In this document: piece by piece, positions 3,832-42,764 of the stretch
Position numbering within the stretch: the first letter of the stretch is position 1
Layout of the letters: each line of letters starts with the position of its first letter
From: Candidatus Diapherotrites archaeon CG08_land_8_20_14_0_20_34_12
GTDB taxonomy: Archaea; Iainarchaeota; Iainarchaeia; Iainarchaeales; 0-14-0-20-34-12
Assembly: GCA_002779065.1 (NCBI GenBank)
Contig: PEXL01000017.1
Location: forward strand, 1 to 42,766
DNA length: 42,766 nt
Direction of reading: 5' to 3'
The notes under the pieces: generated by a model
Told to the model about the DNA's origin: nothing
Database searches by the model: none
The model's input: the letters and a program-made list of their open reading frames with translations, nothing else
Translations under genes and position numbers: made by a program

Positions 3832-4632
3832 TTAATCAAATTTTTTCTGCTTTTCCTTCTTGCCTTTCTCAAACAAATCGAGCGCTTCATTTACATTAAA
3901 GCCGTCATGCACTATTGACCTTACTGCCTTTATCATTGCTACAGGATAATCTGATTGAAATATATTACGGCCCATATCAACCCCTACAGCACCTTCTGAA
4001 ATTGCATTATAAGCAAGTTCAAGCGCTTCTTTTTCTGAAACCTTTGTGCCGCCTGCAACCACTATTGGAACCGGACACGAATCTACTATTTGTGAGAAAT
4101 CCTTACAATAATAAGTTTTTACAAAATGTGCTCCAAGTTCAGCAGCAATCCTGCAGGCCAATCCTAAATATCTTGCATCCCTGCCCATATCTTTCCCAAC
4201 AGCAGTTACTGCCAAAACCGGCATTCCACATTGTTCACCTTCATCAACAAGCTTCGCCAAATTTAACAATGTCTGCCTTTCATATTGGGCACCAACAAAG
4301 ATTGATAAAGCAACAGCAGAAGCATTCAACCTTAAAGCATCTTCCATTGCACAGGTAAGACCCTCATTTGAAAGTTCTGTTAAAACACTGGTACCGCCTG
4401 AAACCCTAAGAACAATGGGAACTTCGATTTTGTCTGAAACACTTGCCCTCAAAACACCACGCGTAAGCATTAAAGCATCAGCATATTGCTGCAATGCTGA
4501 AATTGTTTCTACGGGTTTTTTCAAGCCAGTAGTAGGCCCTAAAAAATAGCCGTGGTCTACTGCCAGCATGACTGTTTTGCCTGTTTTTGGCTTGATTATT
4601 TTTGATAACCTATTTTTCAATCCCCAGCTCAT
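3832..4632 (-). CDS. Class I aldolase of the DhnA / MJ0400 family (FBP aldolase or ADH synthase type)
   Basis: VDHG, LRVSGGTS, Schiff-base region FVKTYY, VVAGG and GRNIFQ. Collinear by eye with MJ0400-type sequences. Confidence 0.8.
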   Translation of the reverse strand: MSWGLKNRLSKIIKPKTGKTVMLAVDHGYFLGPTTGLKKPVETISALQQYADALMLTRGVLRASVSDKIEVPIVLRVSGGTSVLTELSNEGLTCAMEDALRLNASAVALSIFVGAQYERQTLLNLAKLVDEGEQCGMPVLAVTAVGKDMGRDARYLGLACRIAAELGAHFVKTYYCKDFSQIVDSCPVPIVVAGGTKVSEKEALELAYNAISEGAVGVDMGRNIFQSDYPVAMIKAVRSIVHDGFNVNEALDLFEKGKKEKQKKFD

Positions 4633-10762: not shown

Positions 10763-11587
10763 TCAAACTAATTTCTCCAAAATTTTAGAAATGCCAGAAT
10801 CATACTGGATTGCTTTTTTTCTTTCTAAAGATATTTCTTTTGGCAAACCTAAACTAACTGAAAGTTTTCTAAGAATCCTTTTTCTTAAAAAATCTTCTTT
10901 TGATTTCACATTTTGTTTAGCATCAAAGGCTAATGCTTGAATAATGAATTCCTTTTCCAAATAAGGCGCTTTTAATTCGAGATGAAAATATTTTGCAAGA
11001 GCGAAATCTCTCTTCAAGTTATCCCCCCATAAATTCAGGAGTTTATTCCATCGCAGATCATCAAGATAGGAATAATTTTTGCCAGATTCAAGTGCTCTCC
11101 TAAATTCGTCATAACCAAAAAAGAGTTCGTCTGCCCCCTGACCGCAAAAAACTGTGTTAAATCCAGAATCTTTAACTTCATTAAGTGCAAAATAAATCGG
11201 GGTTGCAATACTTAACTGTAATTTATTATCTGTTTTTATGATTTTTTCAATTTTAGCAACTTCTTTTCCAATTTCTTCAGCAGATAATATTTTAATATGC
11301 AAATCCAAATGCATGAGTTTAGCATATTTTTTAGCTCTTTCAACTGCTGCACTTTTTTCAGTTCCAACAGTAAAAAGCTTTATTTTTACTTTTTCAGAAA
11401 CAAGCTTTGCAATAAGGCTTGAATCAATGCCGCCAGAAAATAAAACTGCTGCTTTTTTCAAATCCTTTGTTTCACAAAAAATGGATTGCAAAAGTGCTTC
11501 TTTAAGTTCCTTTAAGCTTGATTTCACAGGAATAGCTGGTTTAAGGCCGGTTATGCTGCTTTTTCTAAAAATATCGCCTTTTTGCAT
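10763..11587 (-). CDS. PP-loop ATP pyrophosphatase, asparagine synthetase C-terminal-domain-like (no glutaminase domain)
   Basis: SGGIDSS PP-loop and CGQGADELFFGY. Confidence 0.7.
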   Translation of the reverse strand: MQKGDIFRKSSITGLKPAIPVKSSLKELKEALLQSIFCETKDLKKAAVLFSGGIDSSLIAKLVSEKVKIKLFTVGTEKSAAVERAKKYAKLMHLDLHIKILSAEEIGKEVAKIEKIIKTDNKLQLSIATPIYFALNEVKDSGFNTVFCGQGADELFFGYDEFRRALESGKNYSYLDDLRWNKLLNLWGDNLKRDFALAKYFHLELKAPYLEKEFIIQALAFDAKQNVKSKEDFLRKRILRKLSVSLGLPKEISLERKKAIQYDSGISKILEKLV

Positions 11588-25532: not shown

Positions 25533-25595
25533 ATTTTTAATTTTAAACGACCCCGGAGGGACTCGAACCCTCAACCCCCAGGTAACTTCACCAAG

Positions 25596-25655
25596 CCTTT
25601 TTCTTTCTTTTCTAAAGAAAGAAAAAGGCTAGGTCTTATCCAAAAAGAAAGAAAA
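25596..25655 (+). repeat. Y-hairpin-R plus mirror-R element, copy A1 (inside the tRNA-Arg intron)
   Basis: CCTTTTTCTTTCTT-ttcta-AAGAAAGAAAAAGG, linker CTAGGTCTTATCC, then AAAAAGAAAGAAAA. Confidence 0.7.
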
Positions 25656-25684
25656 TACTAATTATGCTTATTTTACAAGCAATA

Positions 25685-25749
25685 TTTCTCTTTTTTCTTT
25701 TGGCAACCTACATTTTCTTTTTTCTCTTTCTAAGAGAAAAAAGAAAAGG
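25685..25749 (-). repeat. Y-hairpin-R plus mirror-R element, copy A2 (inside the tRNA-Arg intron, opposite orientation)
   Basis: Minus strand: TTTTCTTTTTTCTCTT-aga-AAGAGAAAAAAGAAAA, linker TGTAGGTTGCC, then AAAAGAAAAAAGAGAAA, which is the exact mirror of R1. Confidence 0.7.
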
Positions 25750-25867
25750 CGGACCGAAGCCTGATGCTCTTCCAATTGAGCTACGGGGCCTAACGTACCT
25801 ATTTAAATAATTATTATAAGAATTTAAAGTAATATAACACAAATATAACTCAAATTTTGGTGATTTA

Positions 25868-30872: not shown

Positions 30873-30939
30873 TATTTAAAGAAAAGCAAAGAGAGTGGAT
30901 TTCCGGTGAAATTTCTAAAGCTAAGTGATTTCCGCTGAA
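30873..30939 (-). promoter_or_regulatory. Promoter of the PolB-like gene: TATA (30873-30880), motif copy 2a (30893-30910) and a tandem degenerate copy 2b (30924-30939)
   Basis: Plus strand reads GAGTGGATTTCCGGTGAA and AGTGATTTCCGCTGAA. The TATA is 21 nt from the ATG, and motif 2a is 12 nt from the TATA. Confidence 0.55.
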
Positions 30940-31664: not shown

Positions 31665-34600
31665 CTATGGGAGAAATTCTGCTGTTTCTTCCCTTGTTTT
31701 GTCTGCAGATTGCTCAAATTTCAGGGCTGCATCTTCCAAGGAAATTTCGTGCTTGCTTGGCATTGATTTTCTGTACCTTACCTTAAAAAATAATGGATAG
31801 CCTGTTGCTTCTCCAACAAGTAGGGCTTCCCCTACCTGCAATGAATTTATTATGCCAAAGCTTCTTTGGTCAATTCCTTCTGAAGATTCTGCTATATGCT
31901 TCAGATCATTTGGATTTGTAATACGCAGAATCATATGGGTTGAGCATTGTGATAGTGTTGTTGTATCTAATTGAACTGGCCTTTGGGAGATAATACAAAG
32001 AGACATACCAAACTTTCTTCCTTCCCTTGCAATTGTCCTTAAAATAGAACGGGAGATTGCTGATTCTTCTGAAACATGTTCAGGACACCACTGGTGTGCT
32101 TCCTCTGCAATTAAAAGGGTTGGAGGAATTACATTGGATTTCCTTTCATCAAACAGCTTGTTTGCAAAATAACTTACTATCATCTGCTTTTTTTTCATAT
32201 TAACTACATCTGAGAAATCAATTATTGTTAAAGTTCCTGGCTTAATTAATTCGGAAATTGCGGGCATATCTGTCCTTGCAAATAAATTGTAGGACATTAA
32301 ATCATCAATCCAGCCAAGTAAGGGGAATTTTGAATTCTGTTTTATATTATTATCTTTTAGGATTGCATCCTTTACATGTGACCAATCAAAAGGGCCTAAT
32401 CCTTTCCGCATATCCTCTTTCAAACAAGATAAAATTCTGCTCAGATCTCTTTTCTGCGGTGCGGTCAAACCAGGAATAATTCCTGCTAACATATGAACAC
32501 TCATTTTAGGAACAGCAATTCTGATATTTTGTGCTTTGATGATTTTTGTTCTGTCAGAAAAATCCTCATATTTGCCATCTTTCACTGGCTGGGCAAAGCT
32601 TGAATACTCGCCATGAGGGTCCAAAACCACTATTGCAATTCTGCCTTTTTGCTTTGGCCTATTAAGGAGTTCTTCAATTAGGCAAGCTGTGGAAAAACTA
32701 TTGTGAATAATCAAGTTATTTGCAACAAAATTGTGCTCTTCCACACACAAATCATAAACATACTTTTTGTCATAATCAACCTCTTCAACAGATTTAATCG
32801 CATCAAAAAACAAGCCATCAGAAACAAGAGTATGTAAAAAATCGAGTTTCTCCCTGATTTCGGGCAATTGCTTTTCTTTATCTATTGAAATAATAAAAAG
32901 ATTGTATAAAACCTTGTAAATATTTGAATATTTTATTGTATTTAGGGGATTATAAGAATAGCCATCCAAATATTGACCCCTAAATCCACTTCTGCAGCAT
33001 AATTCTCCTATCTCATAGCCAAGATTTTTGCACAAAACTCTAATTTGATTGGCTATTTGCTTAAAATCTAAATTAGTTATTGTATCTATCCCTAAATCTG
33101 ATTCATTTTCTAAAGCCAGAACATTTTTGGCCAAATAAAAGGTGTTTATAGTTGGTTCTGTTAAACCCCTTACTACTCTTCTTGCAGTAGTGTTTGAAAC
33201 CTTTGTATTCTTGGCAATTTTGTTAAAATCATATTTAGAATAGGCATTCACAAGTATTTGCTTTGCATCTTCTTCTGTCAAGTTAGGCATAACATAAAAT
33301 AATTTTTTTGTTTGGGTTATTGCGCTATGAATGTTCGCATAATTATGCTCAAATTCAGCTAGTAAAGATCTTAATGAAATAGGAGTCGGATCATCATGCC
33401 TTTCATTTAGTGACAAATAATTGGCAATATTGACAAATTGGTTTTGGGTTAAATTGAGCTTATTTTTTAGGAAACCTAAGGTATGTTTAATGTTGGGAAT
33501 TACCCTAACGTTTGAATTTGATTTTTTTAGAGAACATTCCTTGAGCGCTTTTGCTTTATAATCTATTAAAAGAGTTAATTCATTATTTAATATGTTTAAA
33601 TAATCTGCACCTCCTAAAAATAATCTGCCATATTGTTTGCCCTTAACTGTTTTTATCTTTCTTATTGGGTTTAATTTAAAGCGCAAAACTATTTGCTCTA
33701 TGTTGTCTAACATTTGCTTGCTGGCAAGGGTTATCTCAATATGTGATTTCTTGGAACAAACATAACCATCACAATCAATAAATGCACTCAAAAAAGCAGC
33801 CAAAACTGATTTTTTACTTAATAGAATTTCCTTGGGCACATATTTGGTCCAACTTGAATTAGTAAAACCTAGCTTAAACAAGCTATCTGCTAAAAGCTTG
33901 TTATAAATCCTAAGTTCAATATCCCTCTTTCTGTTAATATTTGCGACAATGCCCAACAGTTTTGCCAGGTTACTAAAATCGTCCCTAATTAAATTAGAAC
34001 TATTGGTAAAACTAATAGTTTGACCTCCGTTATGTCCTTCTGCTAACAAATAGGCCATGAACCTTGCAAAATTTTCATCAACCATAATCTTTGCAGGAAT
34101 TCTAGAAGACCGTACTTTTAATGTTTTTATTTTAGAGCATATCTCCAAAAAATTCATATCTAATTTGTCACAAATTAATTTAAGATTATTTAGAGAAACT
34201 CCAGGGTAGGATAATAAATATTGCAGTTTTCTTGATGGCATATTAACAATTCTAGAGAACTCCTTCATTGAATATTTTTCAAAGAGTTTTGACTTTAATT
34301 CAGCTAAAATGGATTTATCATCAACCCTGACCTTAGTAGAATTCTCCCATAATTGTACAAAATCAATTATTTGTTCCGAACCCGCTATTTGAGGCATTGC
34401 CGTAATTAGATAATCTTTTTTAGCAAGATTTTTAGCTTGAACCCAGTTTATTTGCTCATTTAGAATAGGTATTGGGTGTTCTGGAGTAACTAATAATTGT
34501 TTGCCTGTTCTTGTTTTGATTTTGAACATTTTTTTAGGGGCTTTCCTGCGCATAAATGCCTTAATTTCAGAAGCTATTGGTTGATTATTTTCATCCAATG

Positions 34601-35261
34601 AAATTACTTTCAAATTATTTGGGTTAATATCACACAATTCAACATTGTCTTCAATTACTTTTTTATTTTCCAAATGCTTGTCGACAAGCTCGCCAAGCTT
34701 TACTGTGTCACCATTACCCAACAATATTTCAAGATTATAATCTCCGCATTTTCCGGAACCAGACATTGCCATAATTGCAAGGTGTTTTTTTAACATGCGA
34801 GTCATATTCAATTTTACTGGAAGATCATGATGTTCAACATTGCCTAAATGCATTCCAGATTCATCAAAATGGAAGAATTTCTTCAGTTTTTCATTGTCTG
34901 CAATCCTTACCTTTGAACCAGGACTTGGGGGGAAACTTGGCCTGTAAAAATTATCGCCGGAATAAACACCTAAAGGTTTTGTGTTTGCTACAAGATATTC
35001 CCATTCATGCACAGGGAATTGCTCAAACAACGCTTGGCCCTTTGATTCAAATTCCTTTACTGAATCAGCCCTTTCAAAATATTTATTAGTTCTAAAAACA
35101 TCCATTACCAATGCAATAAAATTCCCACTTGCATTTTCGATCTCAACAAATTGCCCTCTATGTATCAAACCGGAGGTAACAACAAAATCTGCAGTGCTAG
35201 GGCTTGGAGAATTAATTGCAGATATAACTGTTCCAACTGTTTGTGCATTCTTTGCGACCAT
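31665..35261 (-). CDS. herA: HerA hexameric DNA translocase/helicase, interrupted by an intein in the Walker A motif
   Basis: Exteins give a P-loop GSGK|S, Walker B LLIAEEAHQW, and ISQRPVQLDTTTLSQCSTHMILRITNPND. The spliced product would be 515 aa. Confidence 0.85.
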   Translation of the reverse strand: MVAKNAQTVGTVISAINSPSPSTADFVVTSGLIHRGQFVEIENASGNFIALVMDVFRTNKYFERADSVKEFESKGQALFEQFPVHEWEYLVANTKPLGVYSGDNFYRPSFPPSPGSKVRIADNEKLKKFFHFDESGMHLGNVEHHDLPVKLNMTRMLKKHLAIMAMSGSGKCGDYNLEILLGNGDTVKLGELVDKHLENKKVIEDNVELCDINPNNLKVISLDENNQPIASEIKAFMRRKAPKKMFKIKTRTGKQLLVTPEHPIPILNEQINWVQAKNLAKKDYLITAMPQIAGSEQIIDFVQLWENSTKVRVDDKSILAELKSKLFEKYSMKEFSRIVNMPSRKLQYLLSYPGVSLNNLKLICDKLDMNFLEICSKIKTLKVRSSRIPAKIMVDENFARFMAYLLAEGHNGGQTISFTNSSNLIRDDFSNLAKLLGIVANINRKRDIELRIYNKLLADSLFKLGFTNSSWTKYVPKEILLSKKSVLAAFLSAFIDCDGYVCSKKSHIEITLASKQMLDNIEQIVLRFKLNPIRKIKTVKGKQYGRLFLGGADYLNILNNELTLLIDYKAKALKECSLKKSNSNVRVIPNIKHTLGFLKNKLNLTQNQFVNIANYLSLNERHDDPTPISLRSLLAEFEHNYANIHSAITQTKKLFYVMPNLTEEDAKQILVNAYSKYDFNKIAKNTKVSNTTARRVVRGLTEPTINTFYLAKNVLALENESDLGIDTITNLDFKQIANQIRVLCKNLGYEIGELCCRSGFRGQYLDGYSYNPLNTIKYSNIYKVLYNLFIISIDKEKQLPEIREKLDFLHTLVSDGLFFDAIKSVEEVDYDKKYVYDLCVEEHNFVANNLIIHNSFSTACLIEELLNRPKQKGRIAIVVLDPHGEYSSFAQPVKDGKYEDFSDRTKIIKAQNIRIAVPKMSVHMLAGIIPGLTAPQKRDLSRILSCLKEDMRKGLGPFDWSHVKDAILKDNNIKQNSKFPLLGWIDDLMSYNLFARTDMPAISELIKPGTLTIIDFSDVVNMKKKQMIVSYFANKLFDERKSNVIPPTLLIAEEAHQWCPEHVSEESAISRSILRTIAREGRKFGMSLCIISQRPVQLDTTTLSQCSTHMILRITNPNDLKHIAESSEGIDQRSFGIINSLQVGEALLVGEATGYPLFFKVRYRKSMPSKHEISLEDAALKFEQSADKTREETAEFLP
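32700..34748 (-). mobile_element. 683-aa intein with a LAGLIDADG homing-endonuclease domain
   Basis: Cys1 directly follows MSGSGK (CGDYNLEILL). The C-terminus is NNLIIHN with +1 Ser restoring GKS. LAGLIDADG blocks are FMAYLLAEGHNG and FLSAFIDCDGYV. Hint block B is LLVTPEHP. Confidence 0.85.
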
Positions 35262-35282: not shown

Positions 35283-35318
35283 TTTATAAAGGATTGCGAA
35301 GAGTAGATTTCCGCTGAA
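35283..35318 (-). promoter_or_regulatory. herA promoter: TATA (35283-35290) plus motif copy 3 (35301-35318)
   Basis: Plus strand reads GAGTAGATTTCCGCTGAA. The motif is 10 nt from TTTATAAA, which is 21 nt from the herA ATG. Confidence 0.55.
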
Positions 35319-35324
35319 TGGCCC

Positions 35325-35400
35325 CTTTCTTTTCTTAAAAAGAAAAGAAAGACCCCAGGGTTCAAAGAAAAGAAGGAAAATTTTGCAAGAAAAAAGAAGG
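35325..35400 (+). repeat. Y-hairpin-R plus mirror-R element, copy B (with a third purine tract)
   Basis: CTTTCTTTTCTT-aaa-AAGAAAAGAAAG, linker ACCCCAGGGTTC, AAAGAAAAGAAGG, AAAATTTTGC, then AAGAAAAAAGAAGG. Confidence 0.7.
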
Positions 35401-35406
35401 ATAAAA

Positions 35407-36051
35407 TTATTTTCTATATTTTTTATACGTAGCTTCTATCTGACTTCGATAATCTGGGAAGTGTTCAGTTAATCTGAACAAATTAGGCCTCATCGGATCA
35501 GAATCAAAATCAGCATATGCCTTGCGGCTGTAATAGATTGCACCAACATCAGTTATTGCCCTTGATGCGATATGCGCTGATTCGTGTTTTGGGCTCCGGA
35601 AATAAAGCAACCAAGGTTCTGTAACACTCCTGCCTTTAAGTATAAATAATCCGTTATTATGCATTATTGCCAAATCCCTTGCAATGCCTTTTATTAATGA
35701 TTCGGCATTCACACACCCTTGAATAATATCAGGATCGAAATGTAAATCCAAAGCAATTGTTCTGCCGCCTTTTGACAAATCCCTTGCGAAAAGATATTTT
35801 CTTTCTGAAATTCCCTCCACCTTGGCAGTTGGAATTTTTAATTTCCGCAATCTGGAAAAGATGGCTTTATGCCTTCTGGCAACAGCACTTTCAGAAGCAG
35901 AAGTATGCTGAAAAAATCTTTTTCGTAAAAGATGTTTCTTGCGATAACCTCTGCCTGAAGCAAATGCAAGAACCTCTATGGCATCCCTTCCACTATTCCT
36001 TGAACCTGTCTGCCTTGCTTTGGCAAACCTTATTCTGTTTGGCTTAGGCAT
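35407..36051 (-). CDS. Uncharacterised Arg-rich protein, paralogue of 30946-31623 (family A)
   Basis: See the paralogue entry. The N-terminus MPKPNRIRFAKARQ is basic. Confidence 0.6.
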   Translation of the reverse strand: MPKPNRIRFAKARQTGSRNSGRDAIEVLAFASGRGYRKKHLLRKRFFQHTSASESAVARRHKAIFSRLRKLKIPTAKVEGISERKYLFARDLSKGGRTIALDLHFDPDIIQGCVNAESLIKGIARDLAIMHNNGLFILKGRSVTEPWLLYFRSPKHESAHIASRAITDVGAIYYSRKAYADFDSDPMRPNLFRLTEHFPDYRSQIEATYKKYRK

Positions 36052-38272: not shown

Positions 38273-38308
38273 TATATAAAGAAGTGGAAAGAGTGGATTT
38301 CCGGTGAA
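38273..38308 (-). promoter_or_regulatory. nurA promoter: TATA (38273-38280) plus motif copy 4 (38291-38308)
   Basis: Plus strand reads GAGTGGATTTCCGGTGAA, 10 nt from TTTATATA. Confidence 0.55.
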
Positions 38309-38313
38309 CCCAT

Positions 38314-38394
38314 CCTTTTCTTTCTTTCGCAAAGAAAGAAAAGTCTAGGTGCTGACAAAAGAAAGAAAACTTAGTTGCCAAAAGAGAAAGAAAA
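38314..38394 (+). repeat. Y-hairpin-R plus mirror-R element, copy C (with a third purine tract)
   Basis: CCTTTTCTTTCTTT-cgc-AAAGAAAGAAAAG, linker TCTAGGTGCTGAC, AAAAGAAAGAAAA, CTTAGTTGCC, then AAAAGAGAAAGAAAA. Confidence 0.7.
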
Positions 38395-38562
38395 TTATCT
38401 TGAAGATAATTTATTCTGCTGCCTGCTCCAGACTTTATTCGGGGTTTTTTTAAGCCAAGCTGCATAAGCGTCAATAAATTGCAGTCTTTGTTCAAAATTC
38501 CTTTTCTTTTCCTCTTCAAGCTCCCTTAAGTCTGATTTTGTAAGTTTTAGTAATTTTTCCAT
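38395..38562 (-). CDS. Small 55-aa protein overlapping the end of the NTase gene (MEKLLKLTKSDLRELEEEKKRNFEQRLQFIDAYAAWLKKTPNKVWSRQQNKLSSR)
   Basis: The ATG overlaps the last 16 nt of the upstream ORF. The composition looks protein-like. It is below the ORF-track cut-off. Confidence 0.4.
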   Translation of the reverse strand: MEKLLKLTKSDLRELEEEKKRNFEQRLQFIDAYAAWLKKTPNKVWSRQQNKLSSR

Positions 38563-39174: not shown

Positions 39175-39212
39175 CATTTAAATTGGTTTTCAAGGAGCAG
39201 ATTTCCGCTGAA
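39175..39212 (-). promoter_or_regulatory. NTase operon promoter: TATA (39175-39182) plus motif copy 5 (39195-39212)
   Basis: Plus strand reads GAGCAGATTTCCGCTGAA, 12 nt from TTTAAATG, which is 19 nt from the ATG. Confidence 0.5.
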
Positions 39213-42612: not shown

Positions 42613-42702
42613 GGGCCCGTAGCTCAGTTGGCAGAGCACCAGACTCTTAGTTCAATAAAAGGAGCTATCTGGGTGTCCTGGGTTCGAATCCCAGCGGGCT
42701 CG
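42613..42702 (+). tRNA. tRNA-Lys(CUU) with a 17-nt intron (42650-42666) at position 37/38
   Basis: GGGCCCG TA GCTC AGTTGGCA GAGC A CCAGA CT CTT A [gttcaataaaaggagct] A TCTGG GTGTC CTGGG TTCGAAT CCCAG CGGGCTC G. BHB central helix is CTCT/GGAG. No CCA is encoded. Confidence 0.9.
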
Positions 42703-42711
42703 TTACCGAAC

Positions 42712-42764
42712 CTCTCTTTTCTTTACGAAAGAAAAGAGAGTTGAGGTGTGTCAGAGAAAAGAAA
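42712..42764 (+). repeat. Y-hairpin-R plus mirror-R element, copy D (9 nt downstream of tRNA-Lys, cut by the window end)
   Basis: CTCTCTTTTCTTT-acg-AAAGAAAAGAGAG, linker TTGAGGTGTGTC, then AGAGAAAAGAAA, the mirror of R1. Confidence 0.7.

Follow-up and report, generated by a model that had tools for sequence, protein, structure and literature searches.

Intrastrand triplex motifs have reportedly been the subject of earlier work by Maher's group. The bacterial TMECO/ITxF motifs of this kind are present in many copies per genome, differ sharply in copy number between close relatives and show a link with loci that have been rearranged (Holder et al. 2015, PMC4666352). They carry three tracts on one strand, in the order pyrimidine stem, loop, purine stem, loop and second purine stem (PMC4666352). 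The same arrangement is found in an archaeal element, here called copy C, that lies around positions 38,314 to 38,394 of a 42,766-nt stretch of contig PEXL01000017.1 (the whole stretch is referred to as the window) of the Candidatus Diapherotrites archaeon CG08_land_8_20_14_0_20_34_12, and in four relatives of copy C in the same window (copies A1, A2, B, and D). The two families differ in composition, dimensions, and setting: TMECO motifs are G/C-rich, have 9-nt stems and a 3-nt second loop, and belong to Proteobacteria (PMC4666352), whereas the archaeal family is A/T-rich, has stems of 10 to 17 bp and a connector of 6 to 14 nt that forms an extra helix, and lies 2 to 12 nt from RNA processing sites. 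The TMECO paper connects its motifs with neither tRNA or rRNA genes nor introns (0 mentions of tRNA or intron; PMC4666352).

Two other described systems share part of this design. The mirror pair formed by the two purine tracts and their linker, with the pyrimidine tract as Watson-Crick target, has exactly the geometry of the designed clamp of polypurine reverse-Hoogsteen hairpins (PPRHs; PMC5220335); PPRHs are synthetic DNA, whereas in the present family the target lies in cis as a hairpin arm. Archaeal introns with bulge-helix-bulge (BHB) splice sites resemble the intron hosts of the family, which occupy the canonical position 37/38 of tRNAs or a known 16S site (∼908) and have closing helices beside the splice sites. 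The known cargo of BHB introns is a homing endonuclease open reading frame (ORF) or a C/D small RNA (sRNA), whereas here it is a triplex-type hairpin module at one or both intron ends that is common to tRNA leaders and trailers. No such module in archaeal introns is described in the freely searchable literature.

The window has a GC content of 33%, and purine tracts of at least 10 nt are very common in its coding regions. It contains 10 perfect hairpins of at least 9 bp with loops of 3 to 8 nt, five of which are the copies considered here. All five have an all-pyrimidine 5' arm (Y), a 3-nt loop, and an all-purine 3' arm (R1), which form a perfect stem of 12 to 17 bp (P1); a linker and a further purine tract (R2) complete the element. 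The original prediction, made from the letters of the window, had described five copies with the order Y-loop-R1-linker-R2 and had held Y to be Watson-Crick complementary to R1. The copies and their third tracts are located where it had placed them, and the hairpins are perfect in five of five. A degenerate (IUPAC) pattern for the hairpin alone matches the window three times, against 0.00 expected from 100 shuffles. The copies of the window genome all differ from one another in P1, and P1 of copy C is identical in five further metagenome assemblies of the same species. The contig came from groundwater samples (JGI 3300025021, 3300004208, and 3300025142; ENA ERZ27293347).

Scans of sequence collections with a hairpin-only pattern (YYYYYYTTTCTTTNNNAAAGAAARRRRRR, flanks unconstrained) retrieved 7 loci in viral contigs and at least 119 in metagenome contigs; among the matches listed, approximately 70 are perfect hairpins of 11 to 19 bp, in contigs of 30 to 60% GC. 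A custom scan of 861 kb of related loci found 145 Y/R hairpins, compared with 0 in a block-shuffled control, and in 106 of the 145 a mirror tract of full length, with no more than 2 mismatches, lies within 22 nt. The lineages that carry the family, judged by the names attached to homologs of three proteins, are Diapherotrites and Altiarchaeota. No Rfam family matches the elements at gathering or E-value thresholds, where only spurious miRNA matches were returned. The statement of the original prediction that no archaeal element of this architecture had been described agrees with this, in that no prior description was found in Rfam or in the freely searchable literature. The elements are members of a large and apparently undescribed family of hairpins with mirror tracts beside tRNA and rRNA exons in small groundwater archaea.

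The third tract is related to the hairpin as its mirror image and not as a direct copy. For each of 98 non-redundant elements, the mirror and the direct reading were both scored at the best offset; the mirror was better in 62, the direct repeat in 3, and the two tied in 33 (sign test, p = 2.5e-15); the mirror is perfect in 35/98 and the direct repeat in 5/98. This is the statistical comparison that had been proposed with the original prediction. Perfect agreement of a third tract with its own hairpin occurs in 36% of cases, compared with 2.4% for a different hairpin of equal length. The search pattern has a fixed TTTCTTT/AAAGAAA core, and the family sample is biased towards that core; in a less biased set of 48 hairpins outside the pattern, 37 have a third tract, with the mirror better in 23, a tie in 13, and the direct repeat better in 1. 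Within the window, A2 and D had been named as the copies in which the mirror is clear, and they score 16/16 versus 14/16 and 12/13 versus 10/13 for mirror versus direct, respectively; the scores of A1, B, and C are ambiguous, as had also been anticipated. Clearly asymmetric copies are A2, D, L007-D, L068:724, L088, L103, L086, and L041. In asymmetric copies R2 cannot pair antiparallel with Y, which removes an alternative hairpin of the terminator/antiterminator type as an explanation of the third tract.

The three tracts also change together between relatives. In the tRNA-Ser(TGA) introns of two Diapherotrites genomes (neighboring protein 88% identical), P1 has changed from A3GA4GA3G to A5GAGA3G and R2 from A3GA4GA3 to A3GAGA7, that is, in the mirror sense, and the linker (TGYAAGTTGCCC) is unchanged. 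The closest genome to that of the window, and the sole related one retrieved by the genome-contig scan, is the metagenome-assembled genome of archaeon H52-bin046_1 (NurA 87% and CCA-adding enzyme 90% identical); its orthologue of copy D has a changed stem end with a matching change in R2. Relatives have kept both D and the tRNA-Ser intron element, whereas the loops, the connectors, and the spacer around them have diverged. The claim that structure is preserved despite sequence change therefore stands, with R2 tracking the mirror of R1. A mirror R2 is the geometry required by an intramolecular triple helix, and the elements have both the three tracts and the mirror third tract of the Y-R-R class of intrastrand triplex motifs. 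These comparisons strongly support a triplex architecture; that the triplex actually forms, and forms in RNA, is what we infer from it.

A second, outer helix (P1b) is formed by 3 to 5 nt just outside P1, which pair with the first part of the linker across an internal loop of 1x1 to 4x4. P1b gains stability when a strand is paired with the partner from its own element instead of one from a different element, in introns (p = 6e-4), trailers (p = 4e-3), and unclassified elements (p = 9e-6), and P1b covaries in every context tested. It reads ACC...GGT in A1, C, D, L007-D, and L068:523 and GCC...GGC in L068:724. The AGGT or AGGGT core that had been noted in the linkers is real (AGGT in 4/5 window linkers, AGGGT in B), but it is not universal, and given the ACC...GGT pairing it is the 3' strand of a helix and not a shared single-stranded signal. 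Linker families are common to members of a lineage. Those outside the lineage of the window include TGTTTCATCCCC, TGCTTCAGCCC, CGTTSACG, and CCCTCGGGTTC; TGYAAGKTGCCC is a further linker of the wider family, and tRNA-Ser introns with the same linker occur in contigs of 34 to 52% GC. A further helix (P2), between the linker end and sequence after R2, is significant only in one-element introns (p = 0.018); it was rejected as a core feature, not being significant in trailers, leaders, and other contexts, and it looks like a part of intron closure.

Secondary-structure prediction with ViennaRNA returns P1 and P1b only. The minimum-free-energy (MFE) pairing of R2 with the Y2' tract of the partner element in two-element introns was discarded, since the tracts are not complementary in the tRNA-Arg intron of the window or in the 16S intron of an Altiarchaeota genome (L085), and each fits its own hairpin. 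Counts of G.U versus A.C pairs, used to distinguish folding of the RNA-sense strand from folding of DNA, are small because few stems are imperfect, and the P1b counts favor neither.

The elements placed beside tRNA exons follow a single rule. With ARAGORN run so as to allow long introns, 50 elements could be placed: 22 on the 5' side of tRNA introns and 17 in 3' trailers, in forward order in the RNA (Y-loop-R1-linker-R2), and 6 in 5' leaders and 5 on the 3' side of tRNA introns, in reverse order (Y2-linker-Y1-loop-R). In 50/50 the hairpin P1 faces the exon and the third tract is on the far side, with P1 at 2 to 8 nt from a tRNA end or 4 to 12 nt from a splice site. Orientation thus follows exon proximity and not the direction of transcription (39 forward, 11 reverse), and most copies have the purine-motif order in RNA, not a MALAT1-like U.A-U order. 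Another 56 elements are unclassified, many of them at contig ends or beside tRNA-like flanks without an ARAGORN call. The host introns measure 66 to 180 nt and interrupt tRNAs for at least 12 amino acids. Hosts other than tRNAs also occur. The rRNA operon of the L085 genome carries many copies: a two-element intron of ∼170 nt in the 16S gene at approximately E. coli position 908, a two-element intron and a trailer element in the spacer tRNA-Ala, and two facing elements inside the 23S span. A 5S rRNA is followed after 10 nt by one element, and a forward element follows by 6 nt a canonical-looking C/D box sRNA-like gene (L043:3104-3160; boxes ATGATGA, CTGA, ATGATGA, and CTGA; E = 0.0015, with a score under the gathering cut-off). 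The doublets all have their hairpins pointing outward and their third tracts inward.

The window copies beside stable-RNA genes conform to this rule. A1 and A2 are hosted by an intron at 37/38 between exon halves that complete a tRNA-Arg(UCG): A2 starts 6 nt past the 5' splice site in forward order, and A1 ends 10 nt before the 3' splice site in reverse order. Copy D begins 9 nt after the discriminator base of tRNA-Lys(CTT). A sixth copy lies just past the window, on the same contig in another assembly (L001), where the hairpin ends 4 nt upstream of tRNA-Val(TAC) and the third tract is on the far side. A role of its hairpin loop as the TATA box of tRNA-Val was discarded, because the loops of other copies are CGC or ACG and the spacing is wrong.

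A by-product of low-complexity A/G-rich and T/C-rich sequence, with no selected structure, might be expected in a genome as poor in GC and as rich in coding-region purine tracts as this one, and A1, B, and C taken individually do not separate mirror from direct repeats. The controls refute this explanation: hairpins numbered 145 versus 0 after shuffling and, in the window, 3 versus 0.00 expected; the mirror prevailed by 62 to 3; exon proximity governed orientation in every placed copy; and both P1b and the orthologous tracts covary.

We conclude with high confidence that copy C and the four related copies in the window are members of a family of fold-back triplex modules that is widespread. 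With similar confidence, the sequence comparisons point to a module made of P1b, an internal loop, a P1 of 10 to 17 bp with all-pyrimidine and all-purine arms and a 3-nt loop, a connector, and a mirror third tract. We are equally confident that the family lies mainly in excised precursor parts of stable-RNA genes and that a minority, such as B and C, lies in protein-gene spacers. For the role of the modules we tentatively favor, at a little under even chances, a triplex rod that would act as a bookend at stable-RNA processing sites. Transcribed within the precursor, the module would fold independently, with the third tract filling the major groove of the hairpin; an R2 after the hairpin would form A.A-U and G.G-C triples, and a Y2 before the hairpin would form U.A-U and C+.G-C triples. 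The product would be a rigid and inert rod 2 to 12 nt from the processing site. Its all-purine and all-pyrimidine strands would not mispair with the exon and would resist exonucleases and unwinding, so the module would act as a bookend: the exon would be free to fold, a helix with a defined end would face the splicing endonuclease (EndA), RNase P, or RNase Z, and the module would be discarded with the excised piece. Given their modular make-up and fast turnover, the modules probably spread by copying, and B and C would then be members of the family that have strayed into mRNA 3' spacers.

Several observations weigh against such a bookend. Copies B and C adjoin no stable-RNA gene, and they lie at synteny breakpoints relative to the H52 genome, where the neighboring genes differ. 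Both transcriptional orientations occur, so two triplex chemistries are needed in RNA; all-RNA purine-motif triplexes are regarded as weak, with the known cases of poly(A.A.U) limited to short A strands. In one-element introns P2 encloses R2 with ∼5 nt to spare, which is hard to combine with a full-length triplex. P1 is almost never imperfect and G.U/G.T pairs are nearly absent, which is unusual for a helix selected purely as RNA. Finally, direct repeats that resemble DNA-level insertion flank 2/13 inverted doublets: segments of the tRNA from the T-loop to the 3' end are repeated around L094:113-250 (16 nt) and L075:4067-4248 (∼25 nt, imperfect), which suggests insertion with target duplication or att-type recombination.

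The elements might instead be structured mobile DNA repeats similar to repetitive extragenic palindromic (REP) sequences, REPINs, or integron attC sites, in which one strand folds and a recombinase or transposase recognizes its shape. Such repeats would insert as singletons or inverted doublets and survive where RNA processing removes them, with no host function needed. The family shares with REP/REPIN/attC elements short palindromic units, singletons and inverted doublets of 100 to 150 bp, an intergenic and genome-specific distribution, quick gain and loss, and structure kept over sequence. The symmetry of the doublets is like that of terminal inverted repeats, orientation is independent of the direction of transcription, P1 lacks G.T pairs, linker families are shared within a lineage, B and C sit at synteny breakpoints, and intrastrand triplex repeats are linked to bacterial genome rearrangement (PMC4666352). 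Turnover is also fast. Only D of the five window copies is kept in the H52 genome, beside the same tRNA-Lys; A1, A2, B, and C are missing, and ∼35 kb of syntenic H52 sequence has one element versus five in the window. L079 likewise carries a plain T7 terminator at the place of a trailer element of L137, and presence/absence polymorphism between close relatives is thus observed for the family.

A mobile repeat is the main rival to the bookend, though a less likely one. Its recombinase would need to recognize tRNA genes at the 5' end, at the 3' end, and at position 37/38, a site in the 16S gene, and 5S rRNA and C/D sRNA genes at their 3' ends, of which the only common feature is RNA processing. 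P1 differs among all copies of one genome, unlike in active MITEs (miniature inverted-repeat transposable elements), and the near-identical copies, terminal inverted repeats, and target-site duplications that define MITEs and REPINs are not the pattern found; target duplication was not seen at 11/13 inverted doublets. Unlike in REP/REPIN/attC systems, no RAYT, IntI, or other recombinase was seen, the 63 kb of contig covered here contain neither a transposase nor an integrase gene, the doublet halves differ, a third mirror tract is present, and the elements are tight against processing sites. Moreover, orthologous copies keep the three-tract match over time, and tRNA-Ser introns with one linker span contigs from 34 to 52% GC. 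The fold-back RNA module and the mobile repeat are compatible with each other and not exclusive.

Applied to B and C, the reading of the original prediction would have the minus strand (Y3-Y2-linker-Y1-loop-R) form a U.A-U/C+.G-C helix at the 3' end of the upstream mRNA, as in MALAT1 and the element for nuclear expression (ENE) of PAN RNA, and stabilize the message or help to terminate it before the next promoter. The location it had given, past an upstream minus-strand gene and just ahead of the next promoter motif, is correct: B and C fill this spacer, in that they start 0 to 5 nt after the stop codons and end 6 nt before the promoter motifs of herA and nurA, respectively. The chemistry on that strand is the well-established pyrimidine motif, and B contains a T6 run. 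The leader copies and the mRNA strand of B and C have the U-rich, U-rich, A-rich order of MALAT1, MEN-beta, and PAN, and in the leader copies a tRNA follows 3 to 7 nt downstream, as the MALAT1/MEN-beta ENE sits upstream of the tRNA-like mascRNA that is cleaved by RNase P. This helix is improbable all the same, and as a general role it did not hold up. It covers only 2/6 copies of this genome and a minority of the family, most members of which lie in tRNA/rRNA introns, leaders, and trailers, so that a 3' UTR (untranslated region) terminator or mRNA stabilizer could apply at most to B and C. B and C are absent from the closest relative, where the nurA and herA promoters are otherwise conserved. 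The ENE geometry does not extend to the family either: in an ENE, the U-rich internal loop of a stem holds an A-rich tract from the 3' end as in a clamp, a topology not found here, whereas these elements are a simple hairpin with a flanking third strand on its 5' or 3' side, 39/50 of them in the purine-motif (Y-R-R) order in RNA and none with an Rfam match.

Termination as a general role was ruled out as well. Archaeal intrinsic terminators have an uninterrupted T run of about T5 or longer; copy C has T4 runs at most, compared with T5 to T7 at normal gene ends here, and termination in introns or between a promoter and its tRNA would be harmful. Were transcription to end in Y3 or Y2, the helix could not form.

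The mirror symmetry of R1 and R2 and the palindrome of P1 could alternatively act in duplex DNA, as H-DNA and as a cruciform, respectively, under negative supercoiling from heavy stable-RNA transcription; the element would then absorb supercoils, hinder polymerases, or shield tRNA genes from the integrases that target them. What defines H-DNA is its requirement for a homopurine mirror repeat (PMC4666352; PMC11667243), and the symmetry of the elements about the gene fits a role at the DNA level. In addition, the element positions coincide with the known integrase sublocations (anticodon loop, T-loop, and 3' end). H-DNA, however, forms in duplexes with short spacers, whereas the spacer between R1 and R2 is 6 to 14 bp, long for H-DNA and partly paired with upstream sequence in P1b. 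The host gene would suffer from a polymerase block within its intron or ahead of the tRNA, downstream of the promoter, and H-DNA alone needs no covarying P1b and P2. A duplex-DNA element is very unlikely. The coordinates of the window features are collected in Table 1.

Table 1. Elements, host genes, and promoter-proximal motifs in the window
Feature	Positions	Strand	Details
Copy C, P1b 5' strand ACC	38308-38310	+	MFE pairing with GGT 38348-38350; followed by internal loop CATC 38311-38314
Copy C, hairpin P1	38315-38343	+	Perfect 13 bp; Y arm CTTTTCTTTCTTT 38315-38327, loop CGC, R1 arm AAAGAAAGAAAAG 38331-38343
Copy C, linker TCTAGGTGCTGAC	38344-38356	+	GGT 38348-38350 is the P1b 3' strand; remainder is the connector to the P1 foot
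Copy C, third tract R2 AAAAGAAAGAAAA	38357-38369	+	Mirror of R1 at 12/13; direct reading equally good here
Copy C, extra purine tract R3 AAAAGAGAAAGAAAA	38380-38394	+	Abuts DUF8150 gene stop codon 38395-38397 (minus strand)
Copy B	35325-35401	+	P1 35325-35351 (12 bp), linker ACCCCAGGGTTC 35352-35363, R2 35364-35376, R3 35387-35401
Copy A2, forward, intron 5' end	25685-25747	-	P1 25713-25747 (16 bp), linker TGTAGGTTGCC 25702-25712, R2 AAAAGAAAAAAGAGAAA 25685-25701
Copy A1, inverted, intron 3' end	25590-25655	+	P1b ACC 25590-25592/GGT 25632-25634, hairpin 25594-25630 (17 bp), R2 25642-25655
Copy D, 3' trailer element	42705-42764	+	P1b ACC 42705-42707/GGT 42745-42747, P1 42712-42740 (13 bp), R2 AGAGAAAAGAAA 42753-42764
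tRNA-Arg(UCG) gene	25548-25790	-	5' exon 25754-25790, 170-nt intron 25584-25753 at position 37/38, 3' exon 25548-25583
tRNA-Lys(CTT), 17-nt intron	42613-42702	+	Rfam 58.3 bits; ARAGORN
Promoter-proximal motif TTCACCGGAAATCCACTCT of nurA	38290-38308	-	Outside element C, which abuts it
TTCAsCGGAAATCyACTCT copies	426-444, 30892-30910, 35300-35318, 38290-38308, 39194-39212	-	Motif search of the window

The tRNA-Arg(UCG) gene that hosts A1 and A2 is unannotated. It was called by ARAGORN only with long introns allowed and was also read by eye; default ARAGORN gave no call, and at its gathering threshold Rfam gave none either. The predicted fold includes the acceptor stem (z = -7.0). By eye, the splice-site helices could be formed by CUUC (32-35), which is pairable with GAAG before the 3' site, and by CGCC with GGUG, leaving a 4-nt 5' bulge and a 3-nt 3' bulge, compared with two 3-nt bulges around a 4-bp central helix in the standard BHB; this pairing is absent from the MFE fold. 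In the closest genome, the orthologous tRNA-Arg(UCG) (L008, ∼11386-11470) differs strongly in exon sequence and carries an intron of 13 nt, which makes a replacement of the gene seem likely. The exons of tRNA-Lys(CTT) are identical in the window and in L007 (∼3905-4008). The 17-nt intron of the window lies at 37/38, and that of the relative is ∼30 nt long and lies several positions upstream in the anticodon stem, a difference that the sequences present as intron sliding or replacement. Tracts R3 and R4 of copy D lie past the window end.

The genes of the window are archaeal and include intein-containing HerA, NurA, Rad50, CCA-adding enzyme, and aEF-1beta. The HerA gene (31665-35261, minus strand) is interrupted by an intein with a LAGLIDADG homing-endonuclease domain, and an intein-containing HerA is also present in L137. 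The spacer occupied by copy B is bounded by the stop codon (35407-35409) of a 214-aa minus-strand gene and by the promoter motif of herA. Directly upstream of R3 of copy C in the mRNA sense, a 9-bp hairpin (AAATTATCT/AGATAATTT, 38392-38412) overlaps the stop codon of the 55-aa DUF8150 gene.

The motif that borders B and C occurs five times in the window versus 0.03 expected. Where the sequence was read (herA and nurA), it lies a few nucleotides upstream of a TATA box; the remaining copies precede a DUF2204 gene, a gene of 504 aa, and a site where the window ends. The motif is kept upstream of nurA and herA in the H52 genome without the hairpin element, and hence is not a part of the element; this conservation indicates that it is probably a regulon operator or promoter element. 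For the same reasons (a promoter motif, in five copies, kept without the element), the flank of B and C was rejected as a small RNA gene with a tRNA-like T-arm or of the C/D type, and the ordered series of C, D', C', and D boxes is not present in this flank, where only CUGA or GUGA occurs.

Hairpins with third tracts also occur in other settings. A separate and highly conserved family with the order Y2-GAU-CAAAC-P1-GUUUG-GGAAGGAG-N7-AUG (L024:109, L055:3377, L066:7176, L105:5317, and L131:1527) lies directly before unrelated ORFs in contigs of 42 to 49% GC and looks like a bacterial repeat with the pyrimidine-motif order beside a ribosome-binding site. Five contigs from IMG/VR and metagenomes that are classed as viral (L012, L015, L017, L097, and L016; ∼50% GC) carry a hairpin and mirror tract with linkers of 7 to 8 nt, and one family among them has a C.A mismatch on the R2 strand that would be G.U on the other strand.

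Signatures of three-way covariation in triplexes are rare, a few RNAs apart (telomerase RNA, some riboswitches, MALAT1, and PAN). Should the fold form in vivo, the present family would be a widespread natural triple helix with a clear signature of this type, and would connect such helices with the maturation of tRNA and rRNA in a poorly known branch of the archaea. It is conceivable, though on the present comparisons doubtful, that the modules represent a new type of naturally occurring triple helix, placed around exons in the precursors of tRNA, rRNA, and small RNAs, that acts in RNA maturation; it would be found in Diapherotrites, in Altiarchaeota, and probably in further DPANN-type archaea, and would include the first natural all-RNA purine-motif (A.A-U/G.G-C) triplexes. 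Alternatively, the modules might mark a family of splicing-endonuclease introns moving between tRNA and rRNA genes at processing sites. The family bears on the origin, movement, and persistence of archaeal tRNA introns, on the frequent disruption of tRNA genes, and on non-B DNA in genome rearrangement. Default tRNA finders miss genes with these introns of 70 to 180 nt, so the tRNA complements of such genomes are under-called, and the module provides a simple search handle for the missing genes, as with tRNA-Arg(UCG).

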